Origin: an uncultured Planctomycetia bacterium
GTDB taxonomy: Bacteria; Omnitrophota; Gorgyraeia; 1-14-0-20-64-10
Reading direction: 5' to 3'
Assembly (NCBI GenBank): GCA_964373715.1
Contig: CAYJVR010000001.1
Span: 269,888-333,887, forward strand
DNA: 64,000 nucleotides
Part shown: positions 51,226-61,089 of the stretch, piece by piece
Layout of the letters: each line of letters begins with the position of its first letter
Position numbering within the stretch: position 1 is the first letter of the stretch
Notes under the pieces: model-generated
Seen by the model: only the letters and a program-made list of their open reading frames with translations
The model's database searches: none
What the model was told of the DNA's origin: nothing
Program-made: the position numbers and the translations under genes

Positions 51226-52406
51226 GATCTTTTCTCCTTTTGTTTAATCAACTCGGCGTACCACCGCTCGTAGGATACCGCCATGGTTTTTGCGTCAAAG
51301 TGGTTTTGAACGGTTTGTTTCGCCGCGGGTGTAAGTTGTCTGCCGAACGAAGGGTTCAGCAGTATCTTTTTGATTCCGCCCGCGAGCGCCGATGGGTTCC
51401 CGGGCGGAACCAGAAGCCCGTTCTTCCCGTTCAGGATGATCTCCGGTATCCCTCCCGAAGAGCAGGCGACCACCGGCACGCCGAGAGTCATCGCTTCAAG
51501 GACAGCGATGCCGAACGGTTCCCAGAGAGAGGGAAAGACGAACAGATCGCTTCCGTTCACCAGCGCTGGAGCGTCGTTCCTGGCGCCGAGGAAGCGGATC
51601 TGCTCCGACAGCCCCAATGCGCGGCTCTTTTTCTCGAGATGTTTTCGCTCGGGGCCTTCTCCCACTAGCAGGCATTCCAGGGGCAGATCCGGCTGGAGCT
51701 CTTTGATCGCTTCCAGCAAGACGCTATGCCCCTTGAACGGGACGAAGTTGGCCACTGTGACGATCCTCTTGCGGGCGGCCGTCTTCTGTTCCGGGCCGTT
51801 TGCCCCATTCGGAGAACCGTTGACTTGGGCTCGGACCTCTGCAACGTCCACGCTGTTGTGAATGACTCGGACCTTTGCCGGATCGATTTTCAGCCCCGGC
51901 CTGGAGCAAACCGCTTTTTTGACCGCTTGTGAGCAGGCGGCCAGGCCGTCGAAAGAGCGGTAGAGAGAGCGGTAAAACCCCGAGACCGCTTTCCACCGGA
52001 TGCGCCGGGCACCGTGCTCTGTTTCCCAGAGGAAATTGATCCCCTGGATCGTCGAGACGAGATGGGGCACCGGCGCCAGCCGGGTGGCGAAATAACCGTA
52101 CAGGTCCCCATGAAACAGGTGGGTGTGAACGATCTGCGGGTTCTCCCTCCGGATCAGTTTAGCGAGCCGTTTAACCGTCTTCAGCGTCGGAATTTTAGGG
52201 AAACTGAAGGCGATCCGCTTGACGCCCGGGATCCCGCCCAGCCGCCTGAAAAGCGGCGACGCCGGGCATACCACCGTGAGATCAAAATGGTTTTTGTCCA
52301 GGTGAAGCGCCAGAAGGCGAACCGTCGCCTCTCCTCCTCCCAGTGATCCGCTGGAAACGATGAACATGAGCCGGCTCTTTCGCGCCGCTGCGGCGTCAGC
52401 GCCCAT
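51222..52406 (-). CDS. glycosyltransferase family 4 (GT-B fold)
   Basis: VGEGPERKHLE…FVFPSLWEPFGIAVLEAMTLGVPVVACSSGGIPE. Confidence 0.75.
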   Translation of the reverse strand: MGADAAAARKSRLMFIVSSGSLGGGEATVRLLALHLDKNHFDLTVVCPASPLFRRLGGIPGVKRIAFSFPKIPTLKTVKRLAKLIRRENPQIVHTHLFHGDLYGYFATRLAPVPHLVSTIQGINFLWETEHGARRIRWKAVSGFYRSLYRSFDGLAACSQAVKKAVCSRPGLKIDPAKVRVIHNSVDVAEVRAQVNGSPNGANGPEQKTAARKRIVTVANFVPFKGHSVLLEAIKELQPDLPLECLLVGEGPERKHLEKKSRALGLSEQIRFLGARNDAPALVNGSDLFVFPSLWEPFGIAVLEAMTLGVPVVACSSGGIPEIILNGKNGLLVPPGNPSALAGGIKKILLNPSFGRQLTPAAKQTVQNHFDAKTMAVSYERWYAELIKQKEKRS

Positions 52407-53304
52407 CTTTTTTCTGCGCCAAAATATAAAGGGTCATCCCTGTTTCTCCGATCAGGCCAAGTCCGATATTCACCGGGACGGCGAGGCACCGGATGGCCGC
52501 CGATTTAAGCCGGTAAGCCCCGGAGGCCAGAGTTACGGAGGACTGTCTACCCGCCGCTGTTTCCTGTTTCTTCCCTCCGTGCAGCAGCCGGGTCACCAGG
52601 CCGAATTGGAGATGCTGGTGAAGGAAGCTCTCTCCCTGTTTCCAGCCGTTCGCTGTCCGCCGGATCTGAAAACCGTTCTTTTCAAGAAGGCAGGTTAAAG
52701 AGGTCCGGTTCCATTGGGTCACGTGGTTCGGCGGAAAATCCCAATCGTACCGGAACCGGGGCCACCGCTCCCTGTTCGGGACGCTCAAAACAAGGTAACC
52801 GTCCGGCTTTACTGCCGCGGCCGCCGCTTCCAGAAATTCTTTTGGAGCGGGGCTGTGCTCTAGCACCTCGAACGCGGTCACCACGTCGAACCGCCCGGTT
52901 TGTTTAAGCTCCCGGAGATCGCCGGTGAAGACCTCTTCCAGCCCGAATCGCTGCTTCGCGCTTTGGACCGCTTCGGCGTCAAAGTCAAAACCGGCAATCT
53001 CGTATCCGGCGGCTCCCGCGGCCGCGAGGAACTCTCCGGTGCCGCAGCCGACATCCAGCAGTTTCCCCCCTAAGGAGGGTGAATCCTTAAAAAATTCCCT
53101 GTGGTTCCACTGGAGTTTCGGCTTGGCGACCCTGTCACGCACGAGGTACATCTCCTGCCGGCGGTACCACTCCCCGTCCACCGAGGGCATCGGATCGGTG
53201 AAGACCAAGTCGCACGCGCTGCACCTCAAGAAATGGTACGGCGGCCGAGCTTCCTCTATCGGAGGACCCGAGACCGGCTCGGAGCAGGCCGGACAGTTGG
53301 GCAT
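52396..53304 (-). CDS. class I SAM-dependent methyltransferase with N-terminal zinc ribbon
   Basis: CPAC…(19 aa)…CSAC, followed by LLDVGCGTGEFL and FDVVTAFEVLEH. Confidence 0.65.
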   Translation of the reverse strand: MPNCPACSEPVSGPPIEEARPPYHFLRCSACDLVFTDPMPSVDGEWYRRQEMYLVRDRVAKPKLQWNHREFFKDSPSLGGKLLDVGCGTGEFLAAAGAAGYEIAGFDFDAEAVQSAKQRFGLEEVFTGDLRELKQTGRFDVVTAFEVLEHSPAPKEFLEAAAAAVKPDGYLVLSVPNRERWPRFRYDWDFPPNHVTQWNRTSLTCLLEKNGFQIRRTANGWKQGESFLHQHLQFGLVTRLLHGGKKQETAAGRQSSVTLASGAYRLKSAAIRCLAVPVNIGLGLIGETGMTLYILAQKKDGR

Positions 53305-54626
53305 CAGTGGACGATGAATCCCTCTTCTTTTGGCGCGCCGTGGCTTTTCCCGTTGCCTGGATGACCGTTCCCGGCACCGGAAGATGCCGGGACAGGCGGG
53401 AATTTCGGGTTGTAGTAGAGCCTTCGGTTCTTTTCCGAGAAGGTCCGGTCGTCCGATTGCGGCACTTGCGCTTCTTTCGCGCCGGGGTCCTGGATGTGGT
53501 GGATGATCGAATCAGTCACCCGCCACTTCCCGTTGGCCTCTTTTTTCCAGATCGAATGGTCCTTCATCGGTTCGACCGCCCCCTCGAACTCCGCCTCGGT
53601 CATCCCGAGGAACTTCAGGTAGAAATCGAGGCTCTTCGGCCTCACATGGTCGTACTCCCGGACCACCTCGATCCCCTCTTCGCGGGTCATTCGGCCGTAT
53701 CGGATTTCGGTGGAGGCGTCATCCGTTGACCGGCCGTAGCCGAACTTCAGGTACTTCATGTAGTCGTGCACCTCGTTCGCGTGGTCGTCGGTTTTCGCGC
53801 AGAGGTGGAATGTCTTGTCCCTCTTGCGGGCCAGCGGCTCGAATCCGCACTTCTCGAGCACCAACTCCGACTGGGCCTTCGGGTCCCAGTAAATGTAGTT
53901 GGTCAGGTAGATTCCCCGCACCCCGACCGATTCGATCTCTTCGTCGGTCGGATAGATGTAGGGGGCCAAATCCCGCATCGTGATGCCGCTTGCCGGGTCG
54001 TTCACGATGTCTTCCGGCTCGATCCCCCGCATGTCGTGTTCCTGGCGGACCCACTTCGTGAATTCCACCATGTCGTCCAGCGTGAAGACGCCGGTCAGCT
54101 CACCGTAATGCTCGGGCCAGACGATCAGAGGAACCTTGTACTTCACCGAGATCTGGAACGGCACCGTCATGATGCCGGCATGGTAGTGCCAGGTGATGTC
54201 GCCGACCCTCTTCACCATGTAGCGGGCGATTTTGCGGACAGATTCGGGGCTCGCGGTGAACCGGACCAGGTCCACGCCGAACCGGCTGACCAGGTTGTTC
54301 AGGTTCCGCAAGCCCAGCTCGGTGTTGAAGCAGTGGTTGAACGTGACGCACAGCGGGTTCAGCCCGTAGACCTCTTTGACCAGGTAGACCTGGAAATGGC
54401 TGTCCTTGCCGCCGCTGACCGGCACGATGCAGTCGTAGATCGCTCCCTGCCCCCTCTGCTTATCCCGGTATTCGGTCAACAGCTTCTCCAGCTTTTTCTC
54501 CCGGTCAGCCCAGTCTATCCGGTGGCGTGACTCGTGGTGACGGCAGCCGCTGCAGACCCCCTGCTCGTCGAAGAGGATAGTCGGTCTTGCGTTTTCCGGG
54601 TACAAACAACGCGCGCAGTATCTCAT
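53304..54626 (-). CDS. N-acetyl sugar amidotransferase (WbpG/WbuX/PseA family, PP-loop ATPase)
   Basis: N-terminal CARC…CSGC zinc ribbon and PP-loop VPVSGGKDS; adjacent to HisH/HisF homologs. Confidence 0.75.
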   Translation of the reverse strand: MRYCARCLYPENARPTILFDEQGVCSGCRHHESRHRIDWADREKKLEKLLTEYRDKQRGQGAIYDCIVPVSGGKDSHFQVYLVKEVYGLNPLCVTFNHCFNTELGLRNLNNLVSRFGVDLVRFTASPESVRKIARYMVKRVGDITWHYHAGIMTVPFQISVKYKVPLIVWPEHYGELTGVFTLDDMVEFTKWVRQEHDMRGIEPEDIVNDPASGITMRDLAPYIYPTDEEIESVGVRGIYLTNYIYWDPKAQSELVLEKCGFEPLARKRDKTFHLCAKTDDHANEVHDYMKYLKFGYGRSTDDASTEIRYGRMTREEGIEVVREYDHVRPKSLDFYLKFLGMTEAEFEGAVEPMKDHSIWKKEANGKWRVTDSIIHHIQDPGAKEAQVPQSDDRTFSEKNRRLYYNPKFPPVPASSGAGNGHPGNGKSHGAPKEEGFIVH

Positions 54627-55396
54627 CGGACCTCAATGCCTGCCTTTCGCAAATGTTCTTTCGCTTTTTTTGTGCTGTGTTCCGTGAAGTGGAAAACGTT
54701 CGCCGCCGAGACCGCTTCTACACCGGTCGAAATTCCTTCGGCCAGGTGTTCCCATTCAAACGCCCCGCCGAAAGCGATGACCGGGATGGATACCGCGTGC
54801 GCCACCTCGCGCATCAGTTCCAGGTCGTAGCCGTTCCGGGAGCCGTCATGGTCGATCGAGGTGAGGAAGATTTCCCCCGCCCCCCGGGCTTCGGCCTTTT
54901 TTGCCCACTCGACCGGCGTCATGGGCGTCGCTTCCCGGCCCCGGTCGATATAAACCCGCAGTCCGCCGGTCTCTCTCCGCACATCAATCGAGACCACGAT
55001 GCATTGACTGCCGAAAATTTTCGCGCAGTCGGTGATAAATTCCGGCCGGCGGACCGCTTCGGTGTTGACCGCCACCTTATCCGCTCCAAGCCTCAGCAGG
55101 TTCTTTACCTCCTCCGGCGATGTGACCCAGCCTCCCGCGGTCAGCGGAACAGTGCATTTCTTTGAAATTGCAGATATTGCGTCATAAAATTTCTGCCGGT
55201 TCTCTGTGGTGCGACTCACATCGAGCAGGACGATCTCATCCACCGCCCACTTGTTGAAGAAGTCAACTGCGGTTTCCGGCTTCCAATGGAGCACATTGGT
55301 ATGCCGGAATCCGACGCTCTGGACCACTTGGCCGTTACGCAGGATAAGGACAGGAATCAGCCGTTTTTTCAGCATAGTTTCGCGCAATTGACGCAA
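54623..55396 (-). CDS. hisF: imidazole glycerol phosphate synthase cyclase subunit homolog (HisF-like; LPS-type)
   Basis: KRLIPVLILRNGQVV…AGGWV…GADKVAVNT…[10 protein letters not shown]…IAFGGA. Confidence 0.85.
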   Translation of the reverse strand: MRQLRETMLKKRLIPVLILRNGQVVQSVGFRHTNVLHWKPETAVDFFNKWAVDEIVLLDVSRTTENRQKFYDAISAISKKCTVPLTAGGWVTSPEEVKNLLRLGADKVAVNTEAVRRPEFITDCAKIFGSQCIVVSIDVRRETGGLRVYIDRGREATPMTPVEWAKKAEARGAGEIFLTSIDHDGSRNGYDLELMREVAHAVSIPVIAFGGAFEWEHLAEGISTGVEAVSAANVFHFTEHSTKKAKEHLRKAGIEVR

Positions 55397-56006
55397 AGTT
55401 TTCCAGGAGTTTTAAGCCTACCCTCTGGCTTTTCTCCGGATGAAACTGAAGGCCATAAATGTTTTCTTTTTGGACGCTCGCTACAATTTCTGTCCCATGC
55501 CAGCATGTGGAAGTGATAACGGAATATTCTTCTGGCGCCACGACCATCTGGAAGCTATGAACGAAATAAAAAACAGGATCTTCCGGTAGTGCTTCAAATA
55601 AACCGCCGGTTTTTTTTATATCGAGATCGTTCCAGCCCATATGAGGAATCTTAAACTTCACGTCTGCAGGACGGATCCTTTTGACGCCGCTCTTAATCCA
55701 GCCAAATCCTGAATCAAGGCCGCCTTCTTCGCTGACTCCCTCGGCTAAAAACTGCATGCCCAAACAAATGCCTAGGTAGGGTTTTTTCTTTTCCTGCACT
55801 TCTTCGAAGAGGGGCTTAATTAATCCGGAGCGAGATAGATTCCTTATGCCGTCACTAAAAGCACCAACTCCGGGCACAACAATTGCTGATGCGTTTTGTA
55901 AATCAGCCGCTTTTCTCGCGATCTGCACTTTCTCGCCGATCGCCTCGAACGCGTTGGCGACCGACCGCAGATTCCCCATCCCGTAATCCACCAGCGCGAG
56001 CCGCAT
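55335..56006 (-). CDS. hisH: glutamine amidotransferase subunit homolog (HisH-like; LPS-type)
   Basis: [16 protein letters not shown]…PGVGAF…GICLGMQ…HSF…QFHPEKS (Cys-His-Glu triad context). Confidence 0.85.
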   Translation of the reverse strand: MRLALVDYGMGNLRSVANAFEAIGEKVQIARKAADLQNASAIVVPGVGAFSDGIRNLSRSGLIKPLFEEVQEKKKPYLGICLGMQFLAEGVSEEGGLDSGFGWIKSGVKRIRPADVKFKIPHMGWNDLDIKKTGGLFEALPEDPVFYFVHSFQMVVAPEEYSVITSTCWHGTEIVASVQKENIYGLQFHPEKSQRVGLKLLENFASIARNYAEKTADSCPYPA

Positions 56007-56650
56007 TAGTTTCTCACCGGGTAACCGCCCCTGCGATTCAGGAACGCTTTTGCTTTAATGGGGCTGATGTCGCGAAAATGGAATATAGATGCAGCGGCAG
56101 CGCCGGTAGCCAATCCCTGGCTAAATGCGAGCGCGAGATCTTCTAATTTACCTGCTCCGCCCGAGATGATTACCGGGATCTTCACTGCTTTGCAGATTGA
56201 TTGGGCAAGCTCAAGATCATACCCTTCCATGGTTCCGTCTCTATCTATCGAAGTGAGTAAGATTTCTCCGGCCCCTAACGCCTCAATCTTTTTCGCCCAA
56301 TCCAAAGGGTTCATTCCGGTCCCGTTGCTGCCGCTATGAGTCATGACTTCATATGAATTGCCATTCTTTTTTGCATCAATTGAAACCACAATGCACTGGC
56401 TGCCAAAGATCTTGGCCGCTTCTCTTATAAACTCCGGATTTTGAACCGCAGCGGTGTTAACAACAACCTTGTCAGCGCCAACAAGTAAAAGCTTTCGAAT
56501 ATCTTCGACGGTCCGAATGCCTCCGCCAACAGTCAGCGGCATAAAAACCCGCCCAGAAATTTCAGAAACGGCATTTGCTAATTGGTCAATGCCGCGCTCT
56601 TCTGTGGTTGCGCGAAAATCAAGAAAGACGAGTTCATCTGCTAGCTGGGC
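55380..56650. other. local GC dip (about 45-50% against about 60% in flanks), covering the standalone hisH and the HisF-domain half of the hisHF fusion
   Basis: 60-nt windows inside this patch count 35-50% GC, for example 55561-55620 about 35% and 56461-56520 about 42%. Flanking windows at 54721-54780 and 56881-57000 count about 60%. Confidence 0.55.
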
Positions 56651-57451
56651 GTCGTAGACCATCGGGGCCTTGACCGGGTGGCCGACGTCATGGCGGATGC
56701 CGTTTTCCTGGATCTGGAACCGGACCGTCTTCGTGAGCCGCCCTTTGTTGTACAAGAGGGTCGGGATCAGCCGGATGTTTGGCGTCTTTTTCTCGTTGGT
56801 TTTAAGGGTCCCCAAGGGTTCGGTTTCTTCAGTTGTTGGATCCCAGGTAAGAAAATTCTTTAACAGGCCGAGGCCGGCTTCCTGGCTCTTCTCCGGGTGG
56901 AACTGGACCCCGGCGATGTTCTCCTTGACGATCGCCGAGTGGAACGTTTCCCCGTATGCGGTGGTGGCGGCGACAGCCGCCAGGTTATCGGACACGACAT
57001 GGTAGCCGTGCACGAAATAGAAATAAGGGACCCGCTTCAATCCTTTAAAGAGGAAACTGGGCCGGGCCGGGACCGCTTCGTCCCACCCAATGTGGAGCGT
57101 TTTCAGAGAGCCGTTTCTTTTGAAAGGTTTAACGCCGGCGGACACCCATCCGAGGCCCGGATGCCGCCCCTGTTCCAAGCTCTCTTTCGCGAGCAACTGC
57201 ATGCCGAGGCAGATGCCGAGAAACGGGGTTTTCCTGACCCGCACTGTTTTTGTCAGCGGCCCGATCAGCCCAAGTTTGTCCAGGTTCTGCATCCCCTGGC
57301 CGAACGCGCCGACCCCCGGCAGAACGATCTTTTCCGCGTTCTCTATGTCGGCCGGACGGCTGGTCACCTGGACTTCGGCGTTCAGCGTTTCGAACGCCCG
57401 GGCGACCGAACTCAAGTTCCCCATCCCGTAGTCGATAATGGTAACCTTCAT
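56006..57451 (-). CDS. fused HisH-HisF homolog (glutamine amidotransferase domain + cyclase domain in one polypeptide)
   Basis: The N-terminal domain [16 protein letters not shown]…GICLGMQ…QFHPEKS and the C-terminal domain [18 protein letters not shown]…GGGI…GADKVVVNT…[10 protein letters not shown]…ISGGAG are joined by the linker [22 protein letters not shown]. Start set at MKVTI (ATGA overlap). Confidence 0.8.
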
Positions 57452-58647
57452 TCTTTCGCTCCCGGAGAGACCCATTTCTCCTGGTCCCAGAGGGGCGCCC
57501 CTTTTTCCACGTGGCGTAGGTCCGGTTTGTGGGGGTAGACCGCGTGCTCAAGCGCGATCTTATTGAACTCCTCTTCGGTCATGCCGACCAGCTTCAGGAA
57601 GACGTCGAGCGAGGCGGGCCGCTTGCCGTCGAATTCCGCCATCAGTTTCTCCCCCTGCTCGCGGGTCATCCGGCTGTTCCGGATATCAATGCTGGCCAAA
57701 TGGTTCGTCCGGCCCATCCCCCGCTTGATGAAGCGCAGGTAGTCCCGCACCCCCTGCAGATAGCATTCGATCTTTTCGTAGCCGTAGCCATCCGGGACCC
57801 CTTCGACCGCTTCCTCTTTCCAGCCCAGCTCCCGCTTGATCACCTCGACTTGGGCCTTGACGTCCCACGGAATGTAGGTCCCCAGGCAGATTGACCGGTA
57901 GCCGAGTTTTTTCAGCTCCTCCTTGGGCGGGTACCGGAACGGCTCCAGGTCCCGCTCGTCGATCCCTTGCCCGAGCATGCCGGCCATGTCCTCCGCGGTG
58001 ATCCCGAGGTTGATGTAACGGTTGAACCGCTTCTCGTCCACGAGTTCCTGCTCGTCCTGGCGGAAGTAGGCGTTGTACTCGGTATTCGGCTCCCCCCAGA
58101 TCACCAAAGGCACCTGGAACCGGATCGCCATCTGCATCGGGAAGGAGAAGATGCCGGTGTGGCAGTGCCAGCAGAAGTCTCCCTTCCTCTTGAGGCTTTC
58201 CACCATGAGCCGGCGCACCACCTTCCAGCCGGCCCGGAACTTGAGGAAGTCAACGCCGAGCGCCCGGATCGTCCGCTCGGTGTTCTCGATCACGGTCGGG
58301 CGCAGGAACCCGTGGTCGAAGCAGACCACCAGCGGTTTGAGCCTGAACTGTTTCACGAGCGTGTAGGCGGTGTAGGTGCTGTCCTTGCCTCCGGAGAACG
58401 GAATGATGCAGTCGTAGGCATACTTGCCGCGGTAGCTGTCGAGCAATCCTTCAAACTCACGCTTTTTGGCGGCCCAGTCGATCACCTGCTGTTTGTGCTC
58501 GATGTTCCGGCAGACGTTGCAGACCCCTTCGGCGTCGAACACGATCGTGTCGTGCGTTTCGGCGAGCAGGCAGCGGACACAGCGCCTCAGTTTCGAGGCG
58601 CTCTCCTGCAATGAGGAGCTTTCTTTATCGAGCGACGGGTTCGGCAT
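57448..58647 (-). CDS. N-acetyl sugar amidotransferase (WbpG/PseA family), second copy
   Basis: CVRCLL…CNVC zinc ribbon and PP-loop IPFSGGKDS; paralog of the 53304..54626 gene. Confidence 0.75.
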   Translation of the reverse strand: MPNPSLDKESSSLQESASKLRRCVRCLLAETHDTIVFDAEGVCNVCRNIEHKQQVIDWAAKKREFEGLLDSYRGKYAYDCIIPFSGGKDSTYTAYTLVKQFRLKPLVVCFDHGFLRPTVIENTERTIRALGVDFLKFRAGWKVVRRLMVESLKRKGDFCWHCHTGIFSFPMQMAIRFQVPLVIWGEPNTEYNAYFRQDEQELVDEKRFNRYINLGITAEDMAGMLGQGIDERDLEPFRYPPKEELKKLGYRSICLGTYIPWDVKAQVEVIKRELGWKEEAVEGVPDGYGYEKIECYLQGVRDYLRFIKRGMGRTNHLASIDIRNSRMTREQGEKLMAEFDGKRPASLDVFLKLVGMTEEEFNKIALEHAVYPHKPDLRHVEKGAPLWDQEKWVSPGAKE

Positions 58648-59734
58648 GCACCTTTTTCTCCGATCGGCTGACGACCATATCCCATGAGAGGGGCGTCCCC
58701 TTAGCGATGTCCCGCGCCGCCTTCTTTCCCAGGACCACCGGCAGTTCCTTCGGCGGAAGCCCGTGCGCGGGCCGGATCGAGCGGACGTTCCGCTCCGTGA
58801 AGATTTCCCCCTCTTTGATGTCGGCCACCACGAAGAGAGAGCGCCGGAACACCCTGTTCTTTTCCTCTTCCGGTGTTGCTTTGTAGTCGGGTGAGCCGAT
58901 CGCCTGCTCCACCATACGGATACCCTTCACCATCGCGGCGAACTCCTGCGGCTCGAGAGAGAAACCGGCGTCTGGCCCACCCTTCGCGCGGGAGAGGATC
59001 AGATGTTTCTCCACGATGCAGGCTCCGAGTGCCACTGCGGCCAGCGCCACCTCGGTTCCGAGCGTGTGGTCCGAAAGCCCGGCCGGCGCATGGAATGTTT
59101 TGGCCAGGTGCGCGATCGTCAAAAGATTCATGTCGGATGGTGTCGCCGGGTAGCCGCTGGTGCATTTCAAGAGCGCGATCTGTTTCGCGCCCGATTCCCG
59201 AGCCGTTTTCACCGCCTCGGCAATTTCACGGAGATTGGCCAGGCCGGTGGATAGGATCATCGGTTTCCCGGTTTTGGCAATCCGCTGAATGAGCGGGATA
59301 TCCACGATCTCAAACGAGGAAACCTTGTAGGCCGGCACCCCCATTTTCTCGAGGAAATCGACCGCGGTCGGGTCGAACGGTGAGCAAAAAAGATCGATCC
59401 CGGCCTCTGCGGCGACCTTTTTCAGCTTCGGCTGCCATTCCCACGGGGTGTGCGCTTCCTTATAGAGGTCGTGGAGCGTCCGGCCGGCCCAGGGGCTCCC
59501 CTTGCCGATCTTGAACTCCGGCCTGTCCGAATCGAGCGTGATCGTGTCCGGCGTGTAGGTCTGCAGTTTCGCCGCGTCGGCCCCCGCCTTTTTCGCGGCC
59601 CGGATCAGCTCCGCCGCCTGCTCGAAAGAGCCGCCGTGGTTGCAGGAGATCTCCGCCACCAGGTAAGCCGGGTGCCCCGCGCCGATCTTCCTGCCGTTGA
59701 TTTCGATAAAAGTTTTTTGTTCCCGCATCGTCAC
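58625..59734 (-). CDS. NeuB-family nonulosonic acid synthase (PseI/LegI/NeuB-like) with C-terminal SAF domain
   Basis: EISCNHGGS, metal-binding GLSDHTLG and VEKHLIL, and a C-terminal SAF/antifreeze-like domain (…GEIFTERNVRSIRPAHGLP). Confidence 0.8.
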   Translation of the reverse strand: MTMREQKTFIEINGRKIGAGHPAYLVAEISCNHGGSFEQAAELIRAAKKAGADAAKLQTYTPDTITLDSDRPEFKIGKGSPWAGRTLHDLYKEAHTPWEWQPKLKKVAAEAGIDLFCSPFDPTAVDFLEKMGVPAYKVSSFEIVDIPLIQRIAKTGKPMILSTGLANLREIAEAVKTARESGAKQIALLKCTSGYPATPSDMNLLTIAHLAKTFHAPAGLSDHTLGTEVALAAVALGACIVEKHLILSRAKGGPDAGFSLEPQEFAAMVKGIRMVEQAIGSPDYKATPEEEKNRVFRRSLFVVADIKEGEIFTERNVRSIRPAHGLPPKELPVVLGKKAARDIAKGTPLSWDMVVSRSEKKVHAEPVAR

Positions 59735-61089
59735 ATTTTCCTGAAAACGGGTTGAATGACAGGCCCTTCGAGCGACTGAAGCAGTTTCCCCTCTTTGAGG
59801 ATCTGCGACAGCAGTTCCAGCACGCTTCGGTAGACCATCAGCACTGATTCCACAGCCGTCTCGTCATGGGCGGCGCAGAGGTTGTGGGCCCCCGTGAACA
59901 GATAGCCACGCTTGATGCATTCCTGCTGGACGAAGGTCTTCATCGCCATTGCCTCCGGGTCCGGGTGGAATCCGATCCCGGTCCTCGGCGGCAGACCGGA
60001 GCACTCGGTCCTTTCTTTCAGGCAGTAGGCTTCGGCCAGCAGGTTGTACCCTTCTTTGATCTGCCGGCCCCGCGCCCAGATCCCTTCCAAGGTGCCCGGT
60101 TCCTCCATCGCCTGAATTGTGGCCAGCGCCGCCGCGATCGATGCGGTCTCACCTGCGAAGGTGAACGAGAAAAATATTTCGTCGAACAGCGCCATTACGT
60201 CGCGCCGGCCGACGATCGCCGAGACCGGCATCCCGTTGGCCATCCCCTTGCCGAAGCAGGCCAGGTCCGGTGTTACCCCGAAATGTCCCTGCGCGCCGCC
60301 TAAGCCCAGCCGGAAGCCGGTCACCATCTCATCGAAGACGAGCAGGGCCCCGTTCTTTTGGGCCAGCTCCTTCACCCCTTCGAGGAAGCCCTGTTTCGGC
60401 TCCGCGAGCCCGACCGGCTCCATGATCACCGCGGCGATTTTCCCCGGGTGCTGTTCAAACAGAGACTTCAAAGACTCAAGGTCGTTATAGCGGAATGTCT
60501 TTGTCAGCTCGGCAACCGCTTTCGGGACCCCCTTGTTCCGGGTGGTCGTGCCGACGTACCAGTCCTGCCAGCCGTGGTAGCCGCAGCAGGCGATCAGATC
60601 GCGGCCAGTGAAGGCGCGTGCCGCCCGGACCGCGGCTGACGTCACGTCGGAACCGTTCTTGCCGAACCGGACCATCTTGGCGCAGGGGATCAGCCGGGTC
60701 AGTATTTCGGAAAGCTCCACCTCGAGCGGGTGGCTGAGCGTGAAGACAGTTCCCTGTTTTGCCTGCGCCGCCACCGCTTGAGCGACGCGCGCGTCTCCGT
60801 AGCCGAGCATGAGCGCTCCCAGCGCCATCGAGAAATCGAGGTATTTGTTGCCGTCGATATCCCAGACAAAACAGCCGGAGCCCCGCTCCAGATAGACTGG
60901 CGCAACCCCCTGCACGAACTGGGAGGGGCCTTTGCTGAAGGTCTGCGAGCAGGCGGGGATTACCTTCTCGGCTCGTTTCTTCAACTGGCGGGATTTTTCC
61001 AGCGTCCGAGCGCGTGCCGCCAGTGCCGGCTTCTCGATCAGCGATTGGCAGAGTTCCTGGATTGACGTTGTTTCAGCTGTTTTTGGCAT
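59731..61089 (-). CDS. class III PLP aminotransferase, glutamate-1-semialdehyde 2,1-aminomutase (HemL)-like
   Basis: FDEMVTGFRLGLGGAQGHFGVTPDLACFGKGMANGMPVSA hallmark of the GSA-AM family, here inside a sugar-biosynthesis cassette. Confidence 0.8.
   Translation of the reverse strand: MPKTAETTSIQELCQSLIEKPALAARARTLEKSRQLKKRAEKVIPACSQTFSKGPSQFVQGVAPVYLERGSGCFVWDIDGNKYLDFSMALGALMLGYGDARVAQAVAAQAKQGTVFTLSHPLEVELSEILTRLIPCAKMVRFGKNGSDVTSAAVRAARAFTGRDLIACCGYHGWQDWYVGTTTRNKGVPKAVAELTKTFRYNDLESLKSLFEQHPGKIAAVIMEPVGLAEPKQGFLEGVKELAQKNGALLVFDEMVTGFRLGLGGAQGHFGVTPDLACFGKGMANGMPVSAIVGRRDVMALFDEIFFSFTFAGETASIAAALATIQAMEEPGTLEGIWARGRQIKEGYNLLAEAYCLKERTECSGLPPRTGIGFHPDPEAMAMKTFVQQECIKRGYLFTGAHNLCAAHDETAVESVLMVYRSVLELLSQILKEGKLLQSLEGPVIQPVFRKM

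Follow-up and report, generated by a model that had tools for sequence, protein, structure and literature searches.

A patch of low GC content lies across genes resembling hisH and hisF in the 64-kb stretch of DNA analysed in this work (the window), and one of these genes is a HisH-HisF fusion. The question raised by this locus is whether the fusion was created when a foreign hisF-hisH cassette joined native hisH-hisF in frame, as the preliminary description proposed, or whether the patch arose in some other way.

Genes of the module and limits of the low-GC tract

The patch falls within a module of five genes transcribed from the minus strand in the order WbuX1, HisH-HisF fusion, HisH, HisF, WbuX2, which is predicted to be a glycan-amidation unit. 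Its genes and their upstream context are as follows:

58625..59734, minus strand: PseI-type nonulosonic acid synthase, located upstream of the module; TIGR03586, 480 bits (cut-off 340)
57448..58647, minus strand: WbuX1, N-acetyl sugar amidotransferase, 399 aa; TIGR03573, 352.3 bits (cut-off 203.2); GC3 0.86
56006..57475, minus strand: fused WbuY-WbuZ (HisH-HisF) gene; longest ORF 489 aa, database product 481 aa from M9 (57451)
about 56846-57445, minus strand: glutaminase domain of the fusion (NCBIfam, residues 11-210)
about 56027-56779, minus strand: HisF-like barrel of the fusion (NCBIfam, residues 233-483)
55335..56006, minus strand: standalone WbuY/HisH glutaminase, 223 aa, intact, with GICLGMQ and HPE motifs; wholly within the low-GC3 tract
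54623..55375, minus strand: standalone WbuZ/HisF-like barrel, 250 aa with the start at ATG 55375, 257 aa if TTG 55396 is used instead
53304..54626, minus strand: WbuX2, N-acetyl sugar amidotransferase, 440 aa; TIGR03573, 358.6 bits (cut-off 203.2); GC3 0.84

The fusion product is 100% identical to a database protein (P0001) and matches both HisF and HisH structures in the PDB. Its single ORF encodes a glutaminase followed by a barrel, i.e. the domain order of the HIS7 type, and its fused homologues, 473-493 aa long, number more than 25. Neighbouring genes overlap by 1 nt (fusion/hisH) and 41 nt (hisH/hisF), and gene calls on Logan contigs give 250 or 257 aa for the standalone HisF. Exact-sequence look-ups with the fusion (489 aa and 481 aa) matched no contig; only hisH and WbuX1 led to the contig of origin. 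WbuX2 shares one 90% cluster with L086 and Omnitrophota proteins. Both glutaminase copies score above the TIGR01855 cut-off of 105.4 (210 bits for fusion residues 11-210, 215 bits for the standalone HisH), and in each the catalytic residues can be read, Cys in GICLGMQ and His/Glu in HPE. For both barrels the best-scoring family is WbuZ (TIGR03572), with 276.7 bits for the fusion and 261.6 bits for the standalone copy, under the curated cut-off of 299.7; the canonical HisF cyclase model TIGR00735 (cut-off 294.55) was not reached by either of them (261 and 239 bits, respectively). The catalytic aspartates of HisF are Asp11 and Asp130 (Thermotoga numbering). In the fusion, Leu stands in place of Asp11 (IPCLDV aligned to IPTLLY), and the standalone HisF reads IPVLIL; the equivalent of Asp130 is retained in the barrels (SIDAK / SIDVR).

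The histidine-gene identity assumed in the preliminary description does not agree with these scores, in which WbuX passes its cut-off and WbuZ comes first for both barrels, nor with the glycan-cluster context. As judged from both, the genes are WbuX/WbuY/WbuZ-type glycan-amidation paralogues in a pseudaminic-acid/capsule-type cluster, and not hisH/hisF of histidine biosynthesis. By analogy with WbuX/HisH2/HisF2-type systems that have been characterised, each glutaminase with its barrel would pass glutamine-derived ammonia to a WbuX-type ATP-dependent amidotransferase, and this enzyme would form an acetamidino group from an N-acetyl group of its sugar substrate, which is probably a nonulosonate of the pseudaminic-acid type. 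With two enzyme sets, two steps of amidation, or else two substrates, would be expected.

The GC drop of 10-15 points reported earlier is correct: in 300-bp windows GC is 0.447 at 55400-55699 and 0.460 at 56200-56499, against 0.58-0.64 in the neighbours on either side. The patch is the GC minimum of the entire 64-kb window (mean 0.581, sd 0.037; absolute minimum 0.44 at 55351). The sole other region of the window with sustained GC below 0.50 is located at 41.9-43.8 kb. The drop is confined almost wholly to third codon positions, with GC1 and GC2 nearly flat. A two-boundary change-point fit of GC3 was performed over nine consecutive genes (3327 codons) with 100 permutations and 2-lnL support intervals. 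GC3 proved to be non-uniform, 0.50 inside the tract and 0.78 outside it, with LLR of 77.2 versus a permutation maximum of 11.8 (n=100), and the following limits were obtained:

55148..56644, minus strand: low-GC3 tract of about 1.5 kb, made of the 3' 212 codons of the fusion, the entire standalone hisH and about 76 first codons of the standalone hisF
56636..56654, minus strand: sharp 5' (upstream) boundary; best fit at fusion codon 278 (56642), support codons 274-280
55115..55343, minus strand: diffuse 3' (downstream) boundary zone; best fit at hisF codon 76 (55148), support codons 11-87

The 5' boundary is resolved to 7 codons, and 40-codon GC3 windows across it change from 0.85 through 0.60 to 0.40. 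It lies just ahead of a conserved barrel strand, DELVFLD, 44 codons into the HisF domain of the fusion (which starts at about residue 233-235) and away from the domain junction or linker. GC3 of the fusion is 0.70-0.88 in codons 1-275 and 0.40-0.57 in codons 281-489. In the standalone hisH it amounts to 0.42-0.55, apart from the first ~25 codons of the gene, where GC3 is briefly high (0.72 in the first 40-codon window). The standalone hisF has GC3 of 0.57-0.75 in the first 100 codons (minimum 0.57, codons 41-100) and 0.7-0.85 thereafter. The tract crosses two gene boundaries and contains in-frame parts of three module genes and nothing else. As described before, hisH and the 3' part of the fusion are of low GC, but the first 44 codons of the HisF domain in the fusion are not; similarly, the standalone hisF is of high GC in its 3' part, but the tract reaches 40-230 nt into this gene, past the previously set lower limit of 55380. 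In its composition the tract deviates from the host background and has discrete boundaries, as is characteristic of recombinant or acquired DNA.

Conservation of the module and relationships of the tract

The order WbuX1, HisH-HisF fusion, HisH, HisF, WbuX2 was found in eight other loci, the fusions of which are 58-75% identical to the one described here; loci with the same module and order include L081, L083, L085, L086, L088, L093 and L175. Uniformly high GC3, with no low-GC3 patch, is found in L093, L083 and L088. The first of them comes from an Omnitrophota MAG and is colinear with positions 61618-51380 of the window at 73.8% nucleotide identity, with GC3 uniform at 0.73-0.83. L081, L085, L086 and L175 have low-GC3 patches of their own, at other positions within the fusion, hisH or hisF. 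A scan of GTDB genomes, which did not include the source species, gave only distant fused or split relatives (34-56% identity). Because the five-gene module is conserved in eight other loci, and GC3 is uniformly high in three of these, the fusion is older than the patch; it is ancestral to the module, and not a product of the patch event.

Exchange within the module is directly visible in two groundwater contigs. Between L175 and L081, identity is 88-95% in X1 and 87-94% at the 5' end of hisF, but only 51-77% in the fusion and hisH, which is a real cassette replacement, with conserved flanks around a swapped core.

Separate trees were computed for parts of the fusion, only by neighbour-joining on corrected p-distances with 200 bootstraps, so that compositional attraction is possible. 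For residues 9-215 (upstream flank) the window was sister to L093 in 199/200 bootstraps, and L093 was its sister on the downstream flank too. This affinity was lost in residues 278-489, i.e. in the tract, where the window joined L093 in 11/200 bootstraps and was grouped with P0006/L175 in 158/200. The P0006 grouping may partly reflect composition or long-branch attraction, as L175 is also low in GC3. The HisF part of the tract is nevertheless still of the fusion type: it nests among the HisF domains of fused proteins, at a long distance from the clade formed by the standalone HisF of the modules, which contradicts the earlier assumption that the low-GC HisF came from a hisF-hisH cassette. The HisF part of the fusion is 47% identical to the adjacent standalone HisF, and in similarity to other fused proteins residues 278-489 are on par with the high-GC HisH part (ratio 0.91-1.10). 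Nearest homologues of the standalone hisH are the hisH of other module copies (69% L086, 64% L093).

Affinities change at both ends of the tract. Triplet site patterns shift from 51:13:11 to 24:20:22 across codon 278 of the fusion (Fisher p=0.01) and from 2:7 to 31:8 across codon 76 of hisF (p=0.002); when L086 or L081 was the third member of the triplet, the Fisher tests on the fusion were not significant. The nearest relatives of hisF are L085/L081 in codons 1-76 (0.89/0.88) and L086/L093 in codons 77-250 (0.83/0.79). Third-position identity to L093 drops from ~0.6 to ~0.35 in the tract; divergence of this kind is also obtainable by AT-directed change in place. Amino acids encoded by fusion codons 278-489 are AT-shifted (FYMINK 0.26 vs 0.18; GARP 0.30 vs 0.38), and unique substitutions in these residues, window vs L093, range from 27:8 to 27:13 with four outgroups; the relative-rate excess was not significant for the fusion with L085 as an outgroup (23:16) or for hisH. 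A history of the tract separate from that of its flanks, which the preliminary description had proposed, is supported by the sharp GC3 break, the incongruent trees and the AT-shifted amino acids. The incongruence, observed in distance trees, is likewise consistent with a recombinant tract.

Origin of the tract

We consider it probable that the ~1.5-kb patch came from a relative of lower GC and entered by recombination. The fusion was not created thereby. Homologous recombination would have replaced the region from the middle of the HisF domain of the fusion, through hisH, to the start of hisF with an orthologous segment, and reading frames and catalytic motifs would all have survived. The donor would be a lower-GC lineage carrying the same module, since the HisF part of the tract is fusion-type and its hisH is closest to module hisH; the presumed direction is import into this genome. 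Protein homologue searches gave no donor, the best matches to tract-encoded proteins being 62-70% identical. Nothing above 54% identity was found in a metagenome scan with hisH, and a non-exhaustive protein search with the low-GC HisF part (the query's own protein was unlisted) returned only standalone WbuZ at 55-65%. Among signs of mobile elements looked for at the tract flanks (direct or inverted repeats, integrase, tRNA), only short chance or paralogue-motif repeats were noticed. The diffuse 3' boundary, together with the high-GC3 first ~25 codons of hisH, may point to more than one event.

Alternatively, the tract could be native, and its third positions and some amino acids could have drifted to A/T under locally relaxed selection or reduced GC-biased conversion, e.g. 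in partly redundant HisH/HisF sets. AT-biased mutation is the usual direction, and the fall in third-position identity to L093 roughly corresponds to conversion of about 40% of G/C third positions; the failure to find a donor, the excess of lineage-specific AT-shifted substitutions, which fits accelerated local evolution, and the low-GC3 patches in the same three genes of several relatives also speak for decay in place. We regard it as unlikely, however, because the 5' boundary is sharp to 7 codons in the middle of a domain and gene boundaries are ignored, neither the high-GC HisH domain of the fused gene nor hisF in its 3' part is affected, the closest relative switches at both tract ends, and frames and catalytic motifs are intact. 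Moreover, the comparison of L175 with L081 shows that actual cassette replacement takes place in this module, and we know of no mechanism which would restrict AT drift to a 1.5-kb block.

Selection for AT-rich codons, be it for slow translation, for weaker mRNA structure in coupling across the overlaps or for an antisense or internal regulatory element, is highly improbable. The overlaps at both ends of hisH and the recurrence of low-GC3 patches in the same genes of several loci would fit such a function, but the patch positions differ between loci and L093, L083 and L088 have none, a tract of 1.5 kb far exceeds the length needed by a coupling signal, and an Rfam search was without match. Promoter-like (2 vs 1.5 ± 1.2 in shuffled sequences) and terminator-like sites (9 vs 5.0 ± 2.3) are not clearly above expectation. 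Opposite-strand ORFs are short.

Two kinds of exchange between the paralogous copies were considered and rejected. Recent gene conversion does not fit proteins that are 45-47% identical and DNA in which comparison of the two copies gave only motif-level matches of 24-108 bp; an identical 14-residue motif lies in a 20-codon stretch, yet only 43/60 bases match there. An unequal or Campbell-type crossover between the HisF domain of the fusion and the standalone hisF predicts a standalone-type 3' half, which the tree contradicts. The basis of this idea was a possible correspondence between the two boundaries, codon 278 of the fusion being equivalent to about codon 44 of hisF, which is inside the 11-87 support interval.

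As for the joining of a foreign low-GC hisF-hisH cassette in frame with native hisH-hisF, the composition order (high HisH domain, low HisF part, low hisH, mostly high hisF) is indeed as described. This attractive story of a gene fusion caught in the act has nonetheless to be removed as wrong, with very little probability left to it: fusion and five-gene order recur in the eight other loci, down to 58% identity and with uniform GC3 in three; the break at fusion codons 274-280 lies within the HisF domain, not at the linker; and the low-GC HisF part is an orthologue of the fusion type. Descent of all module copies from one such event is excluded by uniform composition and deep divergence. An assembly chimera of mis-joined reads from two populations sharing conserved motifs has a next to negligible chance: Logan contigs of several runs break within the fusion at 57196-57225 (conserved FLGICLGMQ), so graph branching occurs at this locus, but this is ~580 nt upstream of the composition boundary, two precise in-frame switches would be required, and the mosaic is not a one-assembly artefact because four independent Logan assemblies each cross both boundaries and match the window with 100% identity, starting at 57225 and ending at 52335-54648.

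The locus is instead a documented case of mosaicism within genes, found in the polysaccharide cluster of a lineage not yet cultured. For genome scanning, it shows that a foreign patch can be told apart from one that created the architecture if a GC3 change-point is considered together with synteny in relatives. The fused WbuY-WbuZ, the second unfused set and the two WbuX constitute a conserved, so far uncharacterised unit, a candidate for glycan biochemistry. We put forward only tentatively, and rather doubt, the joint proposal that the double module is an undescribed two-step or two-substrate acetamidino unit for nonulosonic-acid capsules, and that its fusion/hisH/hisF core acts as a hotspot where lineages differing in GC (Omnitrophota and other groundwater bacteria) repeatedly exchange allele segments. 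If true, selection would favour reshuffled ammonia-delivery partners between the two WbuX enzymes.

Comparison with known systems

In NCBIfam the WbuX/WbuY/WbuZ trio is represented by TIGR03573, a HisH-type glutaminase and TIGR03572 ('glycosyl amidation-associated protein WbuZ') or 'AglZ/HisF2 family acetamidino modification protein'. Its equivalents are presumably WbpG/HisH2/HisF2 in the O5 cluster of Pseudomonas aeruginosa and, in Campylobacter jejuni, pseA together with the adjacent hisH/hisF homologues. The trio also appears in the annotation of a Sphingomonas polysaccharide cluster (PMC11340318). The module described here resembles the trio in that both WbuX are well over the cut-off, the glutaminases keep their Cys/His/Glu motifs, the barrels score best against WbuZ, and the genes belong to a nonulosonic-acid/capsule-type cluster adjoining a PseI-type synthase. 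It differs in having two complete sets side by side, in the fusion of glutaminase and barrel in one set (481-489 aa), in the maintenance of X1, YZ fusion, Y, Z and X2 as a unit in eight other loci, and in barrels that remain below the curated WbuZ cut-off (277 and 262 vs 299.7 bits).

In eukaryotes and a few deltaproteobacteria, imidazole glycerol phosphate synthase is a fused protein, HIS7/HisHF (fusion described in PMC1963479). Our fusion likewise consists of an N-terminal class-I glutaminase and a C-terminal (beta/alpha)8 barrel, and matches the yeast chain 1jvn at the pairwise level with E=2e-55. Unlike HIS7, it has a shorter linker (489 aa vs 555 aa in total) and a barrel without the cyclase Asp11, and is WbuZ-type and placed in a glycan cluster rather than in histidine biosynthesis. 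The WbuY-WbuZ fusion is probably independent of the HIS7 fusion.

Surface-polysaccharide loci are known for capsule and O-antigen locus switching and for intragenic mosaic alleles arising by homologous recombination, and the patch is an ordinary case of such a mosaic surface-sugar gene cluster. It shares with them a block of atypical GC between conserved flanks, relatives that change along the locus and intact frames, and L175 and L081 likewise have a swapped core in conserved flanks. In contrast to those loci, the exchanged block encodes cytoplasmic ammonia-delivery enzymes instead of glycosyltransferases, polymerases or flippases, and the breakpoints are located within genes, giving chimeric proteins.

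Gene order and base composition

Between 51 and 62 kb of the window every gene lies on the minus strand.

Genes of the sugar-amidation locus in transcription order (window coordinates, strand, product)
59731-61089, minus: class-III aminotransferase, first in transcription order
58625-59734, minus: PseI-type nonulosonate synthase (TIGR03586, 480 bits)
57448-58647, minus: WbuX1, N-acetyl sugar amidotransferase
56006-57475, minus: fused HisH-HisF (ORF 489 aa; database entry P0001, 481 aa)
55335-56006, minus: standalone HisH
54623-55375/55396, minus: standalone HisF-like barrel (two alternative starts)
53304-54626, minus: WbuX2
after WbuX2, minus: methyltransferase, then GT4 glycosyltransferase

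The standalone hisH encodes an 18-residue C-terminal tail past the usual HisH end (55335-55396), which overlaps the hisF start by 41 nt (ATG) or 62 nt (TTG); gene calls in other loci with this module (L081, L085, L086, L175 and L093, the last from an Omnitrophota MAG) show a similar 41-nt overlap. GC3 is the highest of the locus in the two WbuX genes (0.84 in 53304-54626 and 0.86 in 57448-58647, against 0.72-0.78 in their neighbours), and their products are the best-conserved module proteins, with at most 92% identity to the Omnitrophota MAG.

The GC dip claimed in the preliminary description is real and the deepest of the window (mean GC 0.581, sd 0.037), as seen in 300-bp GC, in codon-position GC3 and in a change-point fit. 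In 300-bp windows the stretch 55.3-55.7 kb falls to a GC of 0.44-0.47 and the stretch 56.1-56.5 kb to 0.46-0.49; the third codon positions carry the dip, GC1 and GC2 being nearly flat. Applied to nine genes in a row (3327 codons), the fit returned one tract, which starts at fusion codon 278 (window position 56642, support interval 56654-56636) and ends at hisF codon 76 (window position 55148, support interval 55343-55115), with GC3 of 0.50 inside against 0.78 outside (LLR 77; maximum of 100 permutations 11.8). The upper limit proposed earlier, 56650, lies a few bases from the fitted boundary; the lower one belongs 40-230 nt further into hisF. The HisF half of the fusion and hisH are mostly low in GC, as described, but high GC persists over the first 44 codons of the HisF domain, and a short high-GC3 blip covers the first ~25 codons of hisH.

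A second low-GC zone (41728-43778, GC about 0.51, 300-bp windows down to 0.46) holds a PMT_2-type membrane glycosyltransferase and a methyltransferase, and may be another acquired block of the polysaccharide cluster.

Relatives of the fusion and origin of the tract

By protein search, fused homologues of 473-493 aa with 54-68% identity form one family, and fused forms of a more distant kind occur in many phyla. WbuX1, fusion, HisH, HisF and WbuX2 surround every close homologue whose contig was fetched (L081/82, L083/84, L085, L086/87, L088, L093/94, L175), the longer contigs also sharing the aminotransferase, NeuB/PseI-type synthase, methyltransferase, glycosyltransferase and Capsule_synth genes. 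L093 aligns colinearly to window 61618-51380 with 73.8% of nucleotides identical, and GC3 is uniformly high across the module in L093, L083 and L088. The low-GC and high-GC parts of the window fusion are equally similar to other fusions (ratio 0.91-1.10), and in the HisF tree the low-GC part falls within the fusion-type HisF domains, well away from the clade that the standalone HisF proteins of the module form. Module conservation together with this affinity means that the donor, if any, had the same module, and that the fusion is older than the tract event. Some standalone 257-aa WbuZ proteins (P0246, P0247, P0250, P0253) also lie inside the fusion-type clade, which suggests, from tree topology, either that the fusion was split or that the two genes fused more than once independently.

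Affinities differ inside and outside the tract. Over fusion residues 9-215 the window is sister to L093 in 199/200 bootstraps; over residues 278-489 it joins L093 in only 11/200 and P0006/L175 in 158/200. Triplet patterns favour L093 outside the tract (51:13:11 in fusion 9-277; 25-31:7-9 in hisF 77-250) and are star-like in its fusion part (24:20:22), a shift significant by Fisher's test with L175 (p=0.01) and L085 (p=0.04), not with L086 or L081. WbuX2 is 92% identical to its L093 protein, HisH is about equally distant from all its relatives, and HisF residues 1-76 are nearest L085/L081 (0.89/0.88), not L093/L086, the nearest relative switching at codon ~76 (p=0.002-0.018). In fusion 278-489 window-unique substitutions exceed those of L093 (four outgroups give 27:8 to 27:13, and L085 gives 23:16), and the amino acids are AT-shifted (FYMINK 0.26 vs 0.18, GARP 0.30 vs 0.38). 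Third-position identity to L093 drops from about 0.6 to about 0.35 in the tract.

Low-GC3 patches occur at differing places elsewhere: in hisF of L081, hisH of L085, fusion codons ~260-380 of L086, and over most of fusion, hisH and hisF in L175. L175:1-3238 and L081:8561-11763, from one groundwater metagenome, share 88-95% DNA identity at the WbuX1 3' end and 87-94% at the hisF 5' end, and only 51-77% over fusion and hisH; hisF itself contains another divergent block. On alignment this is a clear instance of a swapped core between conserved flanks, direct evidence of swapping in the module, and segmental exchange in the fusion/hisH/hisF core is common.

We favour, with some reserve, a homologous exchange in which a ~1.5-kb segment was replaced by its orthologue from a lower-GC lineage with the same module; this reading fits the sharpness of the boundary, the incongruent affinities and the core swapping in other loci. 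The flanks show no repeats indicative of a mobile element. Drift towards AT in place, under relaxed constraint, is unlikely; in its favour, the incongruence comes from distance trees, the only trees built, the tree partner L175 is itself low in GC, and protein searches and a metagenome scan found no donor, the best matches being 62-70% identical. The word-indexed protein search is not exhaustive: it missed the L093 fusion, one of the nearest relatives of the window fusion with 77% (residues 9-215) and 70% (278-489) identity, and, for a 212-aa query, the query's own parent protein. Selection of AT-rich codons for function is quite improbable, given that patch positions differ among loci, three loci have no patch, no RNA family was found, and promoter- or terminator-like sites do not clearly exceed shuffled expectation.

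The preliminary description had proposed that a low-GC hisF-hisH cassette, recombined in-frame, created the fusion. A tract origin distinct from the flanks is plausible from the incongruence, but the creation of the fusion is refuted by the module conserved elsewhere, the uniform GC3 of three loci and the fusion-type affinity of the low-GC part, leaving that proposal barely tenable.

An assembly chimera is least credible of all. Contigs of four independent Logan assemblies, which begin at 57225 and end, each at its own point, at 52335-54648, match the window with 100% identity, so both tract boundaries are crossed in all four. These contigs break at 57196-57225, a 30-nt overlap encoding FLGICLGMQ (contig starting at 57225 in four runs, upstream contig ending at 57196 in three, one run common). 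The break probably reflects a fork in the de Bruijn graph, where a k-mer of this conserved motif also occurs in another hisH-like gene, and we read it as unrelated to the composition boundary.

Predicted function and known systems

WbuZ (glycan amidation) is the top-scoring family for both barrels, yet below its cut-off, and neither reaches the canonical HisF cut-off. Cyclase Asp11 is absent from both (IPTLLY in the fusion, 56740-56779; IPVLIL in the standalone barrel, 55340-55375; IPCLDV in HisF), the Asp130 equivalent is retained, and the GICLGMQ and HPE motifs are intact in each glutaminase. For these reasons the genes are, as judged from sequence, sugar-amidation paralogues and not histidine-biosynthesis genes. 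Compared with HisF structures, loop 1 of the fusion barrel is longer by an insertion of 5 residues. Identity between paralogues is 45% (HisH) and 47% (HisF), and their DNA shares matches of motif length only.

By analogy with WbuX/HisH2/HisF2-type amidation, for which the P. aeruginosa and C. jejuni clusters are the comparison systems, the glutaminase would set ammonia free and the HisF-like barrel would channel it to the ATP-dependent WbuX, which would turn an N-acetyl group of a pseudaminic-acid-type sugar into an acetamidino group. This working draws on NCBIfam family descriptions, the annotation of a Sphingomonas trio and those two clusters. The presence of two sets would mean that two amidation steps take place or that there are two substrates.

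Polysaccharide clusters with recombinant tracts are already known; only the conserved double module and its often-exchanged core are mildly novel. A Sphingomonas cluster is annotated with the same WbuX/HisH/HisF-type trio (PMC11340318). The domain order of the window fusion is that of eukaryotic HIS7 (PDB match; PMC1963479), from which it differs in lacking the cyclase Asp11.
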